DNA from: a virus
Lineage: Duplodnaviria > Heunggongvirae > Uroviricota > Caudoviricetes
Reading direction: 5' to 3' (one strand)
Virus record (IMG/VR): IMGVR_UViG_2740892422_000002
Span: 1 to 35,451 of that record
DNA length: 35,451 nucleotides
Below the pieces are notes generated by a model, which ran no database searches, was not told the DNA's origin, and was given only the letters and a program-made list of their open reading frames with translations. Both the position numbers and the translations under genes were made by a program. Shown here piece after piece: positions 4,682 to 34,297 of the stretch (position 1 is the stretch's first letter; the number at the start of each line of letters is the position of its first letter).

Positions 4682-5461
4682 TTAACCAGAGATAGTGCGC
4701 CATGCGCCACTAATATAAATTTGCACAGGTTTATACTTGATGAACTCCATTTTTTCGCCGCCATCAACAAAGGTGACCACGCAGCCTGTCGGAGCCTGAT
4801 ATCCACCCTGAACCTGCGCCCCCAACTGAACATTCTGAACGTACCGGGCATCGGCTGTTGACTGACTCATTCCTGCAGGAATCGTGATATCGCTGGTGCC
4901 ATCAAATGGCACATTGTTAATCCTGCGGGCCGTCTGAAGTCGGGTTGCCGTTCCGGCGTTGCCGCTGATGTTGCTGATGGTGATATCCGAAGACAGGGCC
5001 ATGCCGTTGACCCTGCGGGTATTCGGTACAGCACTATTAGCTTTATTTACCGTTTCACGTAATGAAAGTGCTTCGATAATTTCACCGGCTGTGTTTTTCC
5101 CGAGAATACTGCGCACAAAAGCACTGAGCGGCGTTAATGCCATTGTGTCTTCGCCCGTAAAATACGGGAACGTATTATTCTGACCGGTTAATCCGGCAAT
5201 AGCTCCGGCTGAACCACTGTTCGTAATAAACAGTTTTTTCAGCGCCGTCATAATCTGGTTGGTGGTATTTTTATCCGGTTTGATATTTGCCTGCCGGAGA
5301 ATTTCCAGCAGTTCAGACTGAATAATATTAAACCAGTCCGGCCCCGGATAAGTGGGCGGAATACCATTCCCGCCTTCGGTGAAATAAAGCGTTGTTTTGC
5401 TTAATTCAGCCGCGACAGGTGGCATTACCGGCACCCCCGTCGGATTATCCACATGAAACAT
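4682..5461 (-). CDS. tail fiber protein (shorter fiber, S-like position)
   Basis: 259-aa ORF between the baseplate cluster and a Tfa gene; internal segment ...AGLTGQNNTFPYFTGEDTMALTPLSAFVRSIL... resembles tail-fiber shaft motifs. Confidence 0.55.
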   Translation of the reverse strand: MFHVDNPTGVPVMPPVAAELSKTTLYFTEGGNGIPPTYPGPDWFNIIQSELLEILRQANIKPDKNTTNQIMTALKKLFITNSGSAGAIAGLTGQNNTFPYFTGEDTMALTPLSAFVRSILGKNTAGEIIEALSLRETVNKANSAVPNTRRVNGMALSSDITISNISGNAGTATRLQTARRINNVPFDGTSDITIPAGMSQSTADARYVQNVQLGAQVQGGYQAPTGCVVTFVDGGEKMEFIKYKPVQIYISGAWRTISG

Positions 5462-25698: not shown

Positions 25699-26283
25699 TC
25701 ACCCCCGCGTGGCGGACATGATGCCCAGAGGGGTAAGACAGGCGTCGGTCAGCTTTTCCATGCGGTTAAACCAGCCGTTCAGGTATTTGCCCTGGGCGGG
25801 TTTTGATTTGATGATGTCGGCATAAAAGCGGGAACGACGGACAATACAGCGGGCCAGCAGCCAGTCAGGGGTGGACTGGCTCACGGCCTTGCGGGTACGC
25901 GGCCCGATGATGCCGTCAGCATCCACATCAGCGGCCTCCTGCAAAAGTTTGATAGCCTTTTTAACGCCATGCTGAACCGCCGCATCAAACACAAAAAGCG
26001 CCACGCCATCAGGCCACTGGTCACACCCGGCAGGCAGCCAGTAATCGCGCCAGTAAATCTGCGCAACCTGTTCGCGGGTCAAATCCTTAATGCGGGTATC
26101 CGGTTTGCCGTCGCCGTTGACGTCGGTTTTGCCGTCAATCACACCGTCGCGGCGGTCAGAAATGCCGTATTTGGTTTCGCCGCCACGGTCAGTGGGGTCA
26201 TTGACATAGACGCCTTCGATATCGGGACGCAGAATGAAATTCAGCGCATGTTCAAAGGCCGGGGAGAATTTTTGATTTTCCAT
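25699..26283 (-). CDS. endolysin, glycoside hydrolase family 108-like with C-terminal peptidoglycan-binding domain
   Basis: 194-aa ORF; N-terminal ...ALNFILRPDIEGVYVNDPTDRGGETKYGIS... matches the GH108 catalytic motif; no signal or SAR sequence. Confidence 0.8.
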   Translation of the reverse strand: MENQKFSPAFEHALNFILRPDIEGVYVNDPTDRGGETKYGISDRRDGVIDGKTDVNGDGKPDTRIKDLTREQVAQIYWRDYWLPAGCDQWPDGVALFVFDAAVQHGVKKAIKLLQEAADVDADGIIGPRTRKAVSQSTPDWLLARCIVRRSRFYADIIKSKPAQGKYLNGWFNRMEKLTDACLTPLGIMSATRG

Positions 26284-26338
26284 AAAAGCACCTGTGAAGC
26301 AGATTTAAACGTGGTCTGCTTCATGGTGCCGGAGGCAT

Positions 26339-26362
26339 AAAAAAAGCCGGATTTACCGGCTT
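26339..26362 (-). terminator. Rho-independent terminator-like hairpin with U-tract (copy A of a duplicated element)
   Basis: Minus strand AAGCCGG-TAAAT-CCGGCTT followed by T-run; lies between the secreted-protein gene stop (26385) and the endolysin start (26283). Confidence 0.6.
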
Positions 26363-26384
26363 CATTGAATATAAGGTTATTGGT

Positions 26385-26882
26385 TCAGTTAACTTTACGG
26401 GCAGAACACGTAGTCTTCATTACTGAACGTTCAATTTTTATCTTCCAGCCATTTACTGTTTTTTCGACAGGATCATCTTCAGCTTGCTTTAAATTTTTAA
26501 CTTGCATGAAATTCAGCGGGGCTGGGGTATCATCGTCCCATGATGTCGGGCGAACATAATCAGGGACAACAAAAGGCTCAAAAACAGTTTCACATAAAGC
26601 AGACGTCATTTGAGCGAACTCGTCGCTATCGGGGCGAACCGGTCCTGTAACATACTGCATTTTTATGTTGATTTCGTTATCTCGCACAGACGTCTTTAAA
26701 TCCTGATATACACCTAAGTTAAATCCTTTAAACTCAGCAATGGCAGCGTCACCTTTACCGTACCAGTCGGTATAGTCAACGGATGTTTTTTTCTGAAAAA
26801 CATCTTTGACTTTTTGCTGGAATGTATCCGCCGCTTGTACAGTAGTAACAGTTAGTAAAAGAATAAGGGGAAGATATTTCAT
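26385..26882 (-). CDS. secreted/periplasmic protein of unknown function (AT-rich moron)
   Basis: 165-aa ORF with N-terminal signal peptide MKYLPLILLLTVTTVQA|AD; markedly AT-rich relative to flanking phage genes. Confidence 0.7.
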   Translation of the reverse strand: MKYLPLILLLTVTTVQAADTFQQKVKDVFQKKTSVDYTDWYGKGDAAIAEFKGFNLGVYQDLKTSVRDNEINIKMQYVTGPVRPDSDEFAQMTSALCETVFEPFVVPDYVRPTSWDDDTPAPLNFMQVKNLKQAEDDPVEKTVNGWKIKIERSVMKTTCSARKVN

Positions 26883-27280
26883 TGTTCGTCCTTAAATAGT
26901 TGCATTTGATATTTTCCACGCTCCAGTCGGCGCATTCTTTTGATGGCCTGATATACCGTTTTGTATGTCACTTTGTAACGCTGCACCAGCTCCGCTACGT
27001 TTTTCCCATCAAAATCACGCCAGATGCGCATGTCTCTGATAAGATTTTCCAGTATTTTCCCTTTCGGAACATATACCTGAATCCCACCGATATGATTGCA
27101 AATCGCCACTACCAGCTCAAGGGAGTGGGCAGGGTTAACTCCAAGCCTTATCAGCTCTTGTCGCAACAGAGCATTCAGCTCAGCCAGTAAAGATGGAAAT
27201 CCCGATTTTTCCTGAACATCATCAAAATATTCAAGGATACTGTCGTCCTGATAATCACCAAATAAATCCTGCTCTTTCAT
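26879..27280 (-). CDS. mor: Mor/C-family transcriptional activator
   Basis: 133-aa ORF with acidic N-terminus and C-terminal ...AHSLELVVAICNHIGGIQVYVPKG...YKTVYQAIKRMRR... resembling Mu Mor/C; located directly after the gemA-like gene. Confidence 0.7.
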   Translation of the reverse strand: MKEQDLFGDYQDDSILEYFDDVQEKSGFPSLLAELNALLRQELIRLGVNPAHSLELVVAICNHIGGIQVYVPKGKILENLIRDMRIWRDFDGKNVAELVQRYKVTYKTVYQAIKRMRRLERGKYQMQLFKDEQ

Positions 27281-33538: not shown

Positions 33539-33706
33539 TTAAAAACCCTCCTAAGTTTTGTAATCTATAAAGTTAGTAATTTAACTAAGTGCAAAAACTT
33601 AGTTTACTTGCCAAAAAGATAAATACTGAAAAGTCTTTTGTAAAGTAACTTTTCAGTATTGTTGGGTGTATTTTGTTTATCACATTGAAAAATAAGGGTT
33701 TAAATT
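33539..33706. promoter_or_regulatory. divergent early/repressor promoter and operator region (also the expected position of the transposition enhancer)
   Basis: AT-rich intergenic between divergent ner (-) and c (+); 13-bp inverted repeat AATACTGAAAAGT/ACTTTTCAGTATT (33622..33634 and 33648..33660) and repeated GAAAAGT motifs. Confidence 0.7.
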
Positions 33707-34297
33707 TTGAAAAGTAACTTTACAGAATCCACTGATACTAAAAAGTCAATCTGGTGTACGCCGCAAGAAATTATGGCTGCTGATGGTATGCCTGGATCTG
33801 TTGCAGGTGTTCACTATCGGGCAAATGTTCAAGGCTGGACAAAGCGAAAAAAGGAAGGTGTGAAGGGGGGAAAAGCAGTTGAATACGATGTGATGTCTAT
33901 GCCCACCAAAGAACGAGAGCAAGTTATTGCACACCTAGGTCTGTCTATTCCTGGCACTGCTGCTCAAGCTAATGAGCAGCAGGATTCTTCGGAGCTGATA
34001 AACAAATTAACCACAACCTTAATCAATATGATTGAAGAACTGGAACCAGATGAAGCACGTAAGGCACTGAAACTTTTAAGCAAAGGTGGACTATTGGCGT
34101 TAATGCCACTTGTATTTAATGAACAGAAACTTTACAGCTTTATAGGATTTTCACAGCAAAGTATCCAGACGTTGATGATGCTAGATGCATTACCTGAAGA
34201 AAAACGCAAAGAGATTTTGTCAAAGTATGGGATTAATGAACAGGAGAGCCTTGTAGCTCCTTTGCAGGATCCACAAGATGTAAAAAAAGCCGTATAA
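33707..34297 (+). CDS. c: Mu-type repressor c
   Basis: 196-aa ORF (M)KSNFTESTDTKKSIWCTPQEIMAADGMPGSVAGVHYRANVQGW...; matches Mu repressor; begins with TTG at 33707 immediately after an in-frame stop. Confidence 0.88.
   Translation: MKSNFTESTDTKKSIWCTPQEIMAADGMPGSVAGVHYRANVQGWTKRKKEGVKGGKAVEYDVMSMPTKEREQVIAHLGLSIPGTAAQANEQQDSSELINKLTTTLINMIEELEPDEARKALKLLSKGGLLALMPLVFNEQKLYSFIGFSQQSIQTLMMLDALPEEKRKEILSKYGINEQESLVAPLQDPQDVKKAV

Follow-up and report, generated by a model that had tools for sequence, protein, structure and literature searches.

We propose, at a probability of roughly 60%, that the 9-bp inverted repeat ahead of the endolysin gene lys is the inner stem of a hairpin that would occlude the ribosome-binding site (RBS) and that lies across the predicted start point of a Mu Pm-type, Mor-dependent promoter. 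Such an arrangement would act as a translational gate of the type known from gene e of phage T4. Of this proposal, the analysis shows the sequence identity to Pm, the conserved register of the -10 hexamer, the predicted fold, and its clade-specific complementarity.

The stretch of DNA analysed (hereafter the window; 35,451 nt) matches a Mu-like prophage of E. coli ETEC1732 at 100% identity. Early and late genes are all located on the minus strand of the window. The lys gene is preceded by gemA (gp16), mor, and a 165-aa ORF and is followed downstream by small membrane-type ORFs, DUF2730, and the terminase genes. The elements around lys are as follows.

25699..26283, minus: lys, GH108 endolysin (Pfam Glyco_hydro_108 and PG_binding_3; RefSeq annotation)
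26293..26289, minus: Shine-Dalgarno (SD) sequence AGGTG of lys, with the ATG at 26283
26287..26293, minus: AGGUG of the SD plus CU; GGUGCU pairs with GGCACC in the predicted fold
26295..26303, minus: 3' arm of the 9-bp repeat, UCUGCUUCA, in the 5' UTR
26304..26314, minus: 11-nt loop, the site of substitutions and a 2-nt deletion in close relatives
26315..26323, minus: 5' arm of the 9-bp repeat, TGAAGCAGA in the mRNA sense, at promoter positions ~-8 to +1
26315, minus: predicted Mor-dependent start, +1 (± 2 nt), from the register with Mu Pm
26323..26328, minus: predicted -10 hexamer CACCAT, no -35, first bases shared with the anti-SD strand (register of Mu Pm TATCCT)
26325..26333, minus: anti-SD strand UCC-GGCACC, the 5' side of the outer helix, upstream of +1 (minimum free energy and centroid structures)
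26339..26363, minus: intrinsic terminator with stem GAAGCCGG/CCGGCTTT, loop TAAAT, and U7, which ends the early operon and overlaps the Mor site (terminator scan)
26351..26366, minus: homologue of the 16-bp Mor-binding dyad of Mu Pm (-51 to -36), AATGAAGCCGGTAAAT versus AGTAAAGCCGGTTAAT in Mu (sequence comparison)
26879..27280, minus: mor, the sole Mor/C-family activator gene in the window (Pfam Mor PF08765, E = 6.6e-30)

The inverted repeat and its chance level

An inverted-repeat scan placed the arms at 26295-26303 (TGAAGCAGA) and 26315-26323 (TCTGCTTCA). They are 9 nt long, 100% complementary, and separated by an 11-nt spacer, which matches the coordinates, length, and full complementarity given in an earlier, sequence-only reading of this DNA. 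In the mRNA sense, the lys leader reads ...TCAATGAAGCCGGTAAATCCGGCTTTTTTT ATGCCTCCGGCACCA TGAAGCAGA CCACGTTTAAA TCTGCTTCA CAGGTGCTTTT ATG. Perfect 9-bp inverted repeats with loops of 3-20 nt gave 30 overlapping hits (~15 distinct) across the whole window versus 2.8 ± 1.9 in dinucleotide shuffles, and a shuffled 56-nt leader held a perfect 9-bp repeat in 0.16% of trials (P ~0.0016). The repeat is unusual for so short a leader, yet it is not unique in the window.

A larger predicted hairpin over the ribosome-binding site

In the predicted fold of the minus-strand RNA, the 9-bp repeat is the core of a larger, interrupted hairpin of 18 bp on the coding strand. UCC-GGCACC-A-UGAAGCAGA pairs with UCUGCUUCA-CA-GGUGCU-...-GGA at -22.8 kcal/mol (z = -4.0), and none of 200 shuffles was equally stable. 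In the outer helix of this fold, GGCACC (26330-26325) pairs with GGUGCU (26292-26287), which is the SD sequence; its partner strand sits 35-45 nt upstream. The UCC of the long RNA pairs with the G of the lys start codon and the next two bases. Thus, structure prediction of the lys 5' region returned a hairpin that is larger than the one first noted. RNA beginning at the predicted +1 folded at -5.7 kcal/mol (z = -0.55). This shorter RNA retains a weak 5-bp helix touching the SD, which counts against a translational gate.

The predicted cost of opening the lys RBS was 13.0 kcal/mol in the read-through RNA, 5.7 kcal/mol in RNA from +1, and 6.7 ± 2.3 kcal/mol after the upstream sequence was shuffled; only 1 shuffle in 100 was as high as the native sequence. 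When RBS occlusion contributed by the segment from -55 to -33 was compared among 45 gene starts of the window, lys ranked first (7.0 kcal/mol; background 0.6 ± 2.6). Two other window genes came near lys in this comparison (6.9 and 6.4 kcal/mol), and this also counts against the gate. The gene starts 10420 and 23655 (minus strand) resemble lys in that sequence located 33-55 nt upstream contributes 6-7 kcal/mol to the predicted RBS occlusion. A search of Rfam 15 returned nothing at the gathering score; the best match, sroD (24.7 bits versus 50), lay over the terminator rather than the hairpin.

The terminator as a probable Mu Pm-type promoter

The sequence-only reading described the element upstream of the repeat as a terminator copy. 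A terminator is indeed called at this position, but the label missed the promoter role that is suggested by near-identity to Mu Pm. In the Mu record AF083977, Pm is annotated at 9163-9233, overlapping a predicted terminator (9179-9200) directly after mor. The window element is a near-identical match to the Pm sequence (cagtAAAGCCGGTTAATCCGGCTTTTTTTACGTCC...), and the CCGGC-T7 that follows the dyad is identical in both.

The Mor dyad was placed at -51 to -36, with its centre at -43.5, by the Howe laboratory (PMC4287176, PMC4390567). In the primer table of PMC4390567, -87 to -58 is GAAATACC...CTTCT, -57 to -52 is randomised, and AGTA is -51 to -48. These primer coordinates set +1 of Mu at Mu 9224, which is 31 nt downstream of the CCGGC in the dyad; TATCCT then occupies -13 to -8. 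Carrying the Mu register over to the window places the dyad at 26366-26351, the -10 hexamer at 26328-26323, and +1 at 26315, where the 5' arm ends. A reading by eye found a CGGCAC-like sequence at the -35 position of the lys promoter. Judged from this register, lys transcription most likely starts at ~26315 from a Mor-activated Pm-type promoter. Two other placements were discarded. An activator at -43.5 from the hairpin centre was dropped because the Howe laboratory coordinates fixed the register elsewhere, and the repeat itself was rejected as the activator site since its centre would place +1 inside lys.

Copies of GCCGGTWAATCCGGC were gathered from three sources: E. coli genomes, a set with one genome per species, and viral contigs. 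The pattern xAxxxT was present at the predicted -10 register in 146 of the 148 phage-context copies, the other two being shifted by 1 nt, versus 7 of 71 non-phage copies. This non-phage control, taken from the genome-contig scan, consists mostly of generic terminators in Bacteroidota and other groups; in unrelated bacteria, copies of GCCGGTWAATCCGGC serve simply as a terminator. We also noted by eye that in most relatives the -10 hexamer is followed by a G in a common register, which creates an ATG (CACCATG, CAAAATG, and CATGATG; 26322-26324, minus strand). In the window, this ATG opens a 27-codon out-of-frame ORF without an SD, which would occur only in read-through RNA.

The predicted start point changes how the repeat is viewed. 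The earlier placement of the repeat in the endolysin leader is probably half true: the 3' arm is in the 5' UTR, while the 5' arm, being at ~-8 to +1 of the predicted promoter, likely lies outside the main lys mRNA. The suggestion of an RNA hairpin that modulates translation survives in a modified form. The predicted fold occludes the SD, and pairing is kept with different stems across clades. However, the 5' half of the hairpin is upstream of the predicted start, and, therefore, the hairpin should act on read-through RNA and not on the regular lys mRNA.

We considered whether the hairpin may instead lie wholly within the main late lys mRNA, where it would tune or delay endolysin translation or need an opening factor, as Com for Mu mom. 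The predicted hairpin is stable and covers the SD, and a small zinc-finger protein of the TraR/DksA type is among the proteins encoded by the phage. In Mu mom, a stem that occludes the RBS is known to be opened by Com. However, this explanation requires a start upstream of 26333, and the only promoter-like element there is of the Pm type, the register of which leads to +1 at 26315. No sigma-70 promoter was detected in the minus-strand interval that separates the terminator from the hairpin, and only ~6 nt separate the U-run from the outermost pair. We regard this explanation as unlikely. An RBS-occluding stem-loop is a feature of mom and, by prediction, of lys. The difference is that mom needs an RNA-binding protein for its one relevant transcript, whereas relief at lys would come from the choice of start, with no factor involved.

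Mor and the second promoter copy

The Mor protein of the window is 63% identical to Mu Mor, and its C-terminal DNA-binding helix is near-identical. phmmer searches with Mu Mor and Mu C detected no second Mor/C homologue among the six-frame ORFs of the window; hence, the phage has no C. The 19-mer AAGCCGGTAAATCCGGCTT has two exact copies, one before lys (26344-26362) and the other before the Mu-I-like protease/scaffold gene (18621-18639), and these two sites occupy the positions of Plys and PI of Mu. The Pm promoter of Mu serves gp18-gp20 and C, and the C protein in turn activates Plys, PI, PP, and Pmom. The window phage, unlike Mu, lacks C and carries Pm-type sites directly before lys and I, and, thus, Mor appears to act as the late activator. 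Mu Pm and the lys promoter are otherwise alike: they share a near-identical Mor site/terminator, the U/T-run, the xAxxxT -10 spacing, the lack of a -35, and a mor gene just upstream. The second copy comprises the following elements.

18573..18643, minus: second module copy, ahead of the Mu-I-like protease/scaffold gene at 17604..18566 (Pfam Mu-like_Pro)
18620-18640, minus: Mor site/terminator of the second copy, with the -10 CATACT at 18605-18600 and the predicted +1 at 18592
18597-18575, minus: hairpin CCGTCG (18597-18592), 11 nt, CGACGG (18580-18575), with the 3' arm overlapping the SD GGAG

The predicted +1 at 18592 is the last base of the 5' arm, as at lys. The hairpin of this copy is weak (10 of 100 shuffles reach it), which counts against the gate, and is stronger in other I-type clades. 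Further Mor-type sites in the window amounted only to chance-like matches, one of which lies inside a coding region.

Several observations concern the surroundings of these sites. The prophage has only two Mor-type sites, with none before the tail genes, and ACCGGTTAATCCGGC at 5183-5197 is inside a coding region and has no T-run. Upstream of the second copy, the region 18650-18770 (minus strand) contains a terminator-like hairpin, AAACGC...GCGTTTTTT, and the direct repeats GCGTTTTTGAAG (twice) and GGTTTTGAAGGGGG. The 165-aa ORF (26385-26882, minus strand), which is located between mor and the lys promoter, begins with a signal-like segment at its N terminus, and Pfam gave no match for it. E. 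coli prophages that are otherwise collinear either have this ORF, have a different gene in its place, or lack it. Since this ORF is variable in relatives and the conserved block always resumes at the Mor site, its sequence context makes it look like a moron. A more Mu-like prophage in E. coli TUM9757 (L013, 2751-3161) has a Pm-type promoter directly before a GH108 gene, and it carries a second Mor-family (C-like) gene and a second glycoside hydrolase a few genes downstream.

Comparison across Pm-type leaders

A megablast search of the phage collection returned no match, and relatives came from E. coli genomes. The 148 phage copies collapsed to 70 distinct leaders. One of them did not appear Mu-like and was removed, and the 69 that entered the analysis represent ~25 clades, including Mu, and precede lys-type genes, I-type genes, or Mu gp18. 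The stems are wholly different between clades, yet each leader folds across the predicted +1 and pairs the RBS. Among the 69 leaders, the mean cost of freeing the 16-nt RBS was 12.5 kcal/mol in read-through RNA versus 4.7 kcal/mol in RNA from the predicted +1, and it was 6.2 kcal/mol when the 23 nt upstream of +1 were shuffled. The corresponding values for the Mu Pm/gp18 leader were 12.3 (read-through) and 2.5 kcal/mol (from +1). At least 4 nucleotides of the RBS pair upstream of +1 in 67 of the 69 leaders, and a mean of 15 bp span +1.

Promoter halves were also swapped among 25 clades. Cognate pairs averaged 13.2 kcal/mol versus 7.7 kcal/mol for non-cognate pairs, and the cognate half ranked 1-3 of 25 in 22 clades; the few swaps that beat the cognate pair joined related clades with a common outer helix. 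The outer helices differ but are complementary (CGGCAC/GUGCCG, GGGCAC/GUGCCC, CCGGAA/UUCCGG, GCCUGC/GCAGGC, and GCCCUC/GAGGGC). Within the window clade, the 9-bp stem is invariant, the outer helix shows only GC to GU and CG to UG changes, and substitutions and a deletion occur in the loop. The structure pair count found no double compensatory changes in this clade, a further point against the gate. RNAalifold gave no consensus structure for a 53-sequence MAFFT alignment in the promoter register, which is attributable to differences between clades in the register of anti-SD pairing. Because this register shifts, the between-clade evidence is thermodynamic and is not classical covariation. A clade-restricted alignment (A3) had register shifts and was excluded from the pair counts. 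A covariance model of the window clade matched other clades weakly, along with spurious reverse-strand hits, and its alignment was left out of the evidence.

These comparisons bear on three other explanations. The repeat may have no function and be a chance or hitch-hiking feature of the conserved promoter module. In line with this, there are ~15 comparable repeats in the window, and the invariance of the stem in close relatives may reflect recent common descent. We consider this explanation unlikely because of the value of P ~0.0016 for a leader of this size and, moreover, because unrelated stems in ~25 clades all occlude the RBS through sequence upstream of +1, well above the level of shuffled and non-cognate controls.

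The sequence-only reading had raised the possibility of a protein-binding dyad, for example for the late activator. As a DNA operator, the dyad would bind a phage or host protein (the late activator or a repressor) at ~-8 to +21 of the promoter. The perfect 9-bp dyad has arm centres 20 bp apart and overlaps the start point, and the second promoter copy has equal geometry, with an arm ending at +1 and an 11-bp spacer. However, the arm sequences at the two promoter copies are unrelated. No second exact match to TGAAGCAGA exists in the window. Relatives swap the arm sequences wholesale and keep complementarity, and changes in relatives that are G-U only preserve RNA pairing but not a DNA palindrome. 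The activator site is already explained by the neighbouring upstream Mor dyad in the Pm-like element. An operator is, thus, the explanation we consider very unlikely, and the suggestion of a protein-binding dyad was not borne out.

A back-up terminator or processing site was also considered, in which the hairpin and UUUUAU would end escaped RNA or RNase III would cut it. UUUUAU follows the outer helix in the window clade and in one other (the L012 clade), and the stem is ~18 bp in all. However, a U-run behind the helix is absent from most other clades (GCAGGCAUG and GCAAAUG). The terminator scan does not call the hairpin, the loop of which is 11 nt, and U4 appears only after the outer helix and in some clades. 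Furthermore, the clades conserve base pairing with the SD and start codon, a trait that a terminator would not require. This explanation appears improbable to us as a replacement for the translational gate, with which it is nevertheless compatible because it also silences read-through RNA.

Proposed mechanism and its relation to known systems

We infer the start point in the window phage, the existence of a read-through RNA, and the effect on translation from the sequence and the folding models. Transcription of the early operon would start at a predicted promoter at ~33.6 kb and stop at the terminator before lys. RNA that escapes the terminator would carry the anti-SD strand and the 5' arm, fold while it is made, and block ribosome loading on lys. 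Once accumulated, Mor would recruit sigma-70 RNA polymerase to the dyad overlapping the terminator, and transcription would begin at ~26315, the 3' end of the 5' arm, inside the hairpin. With this start, the Mor-dependent lys mRNA should lack both the 5' arm and the anti-SD strand, leaving the RBS open for endolysin synthesis, and only read-through of the terminator would produce RNA that can fold. The terminator, activator site, and hairpin may together make lys strictly dependent on Mor at the transcriptional and translational levels. Two further considerations speak against the gate. The terminator looks strong, and, thus, read-through may be small; moreover, the endolysin has no secretion signal, and, hence, early synthesis alone need not be harmful.

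A gate of this type is already known from T4, and the Mu-like Pm leader would be a further case. In the T4 genes e (lysozyme), soc, 49, and I-TevI, the SD/AUG is hidden in a hairpin of transcripts that start upstream; for gene e, a later promoter lies inside the DNA for the 5' strand, so that RNA from this promoter is without the strand and is translated (PMC3014915). T4 gene e and lys of the window would, thus, have in common a lysis-gene RBS hidden in read-through RNA and a later promoter within the DNA of the 5' strand, as experimentally shown in T4 and as predicted here. The two systems have no sequence homology. The late promoters of T4 depend on gp55 (TATAAATA), whereas lys would use sigma-70 and Mor. 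Unlike T4 gene e, the -10 hexamer of lys supplies part of the anti-SD strand in the predicted fold, and an intrinsic terminator appears to double as the activator site. We found no description of a start-spanning hairpin at Mu Pm or in Mu-like prophages in the searchable literature; older Mu papers were largely outside this search.

A wider claim seems to us about equally likely to hold or to fail. All Pm-type Mor-dependent promoters of Mu-like enterobacterial phages, including Mu Pm, may be compact modules of ~100 bp that combine the terminator/activator element with a start-spanning hairpin. Translation of the first gene would be set by the origin of the RNA, and the -10 hexamer would take on a second role as anti-SD. 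Such a module would be mobile as a unit; its left edge coincides with the mosaic junction in relatives with different or no upstream genes.

If our proposal is correct, a translational layer would be added to the textbook early-middle-late cascade of Mu, which is normally described as purely transcriptional. The lysozyme strategy of T4 would also have evolved a second time, independently, in a temperate transposable phage family. The -10 hexamers would often be of the CAC/CAA type because they double as anti-SD. In addition, a 'terminator' that is repeated in a prophage could mark activator-dependent promoters, which would be useful for annotating Mu-like prophages without C.

Other repeats in the window

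Repeats were also noted at other positions. In the region 33616-33720 (minus strand), the predicted early promoter before a ner-like gene has a -35 (TTTACA) that is straddled by a 13-bp inverted repeat (AATACTGAAAAGT/ACTTTTCAGTATT), and AAGTTACTTT(T)CA is repeated ~70 bp upstream. From their sequence and position, these repeats are probably repressor or Ner operators. At 16620-16674 (minus strand), a 12-bp hairpin (GCAGTTAAAAGG/CCTTTTAACTGC) directly follows a 300-aa gene (16702..17604), and after it comes the palindrome GCCTTTTAAAAGGC, which adjoins the start of the next gene. The sequence GGAACAGCTGCC at 12259-12290, just upstream of a 603-aa gene (10420..12231), is an inverted repeat of 12 perfectly matched bp around a loop of 5 nt.
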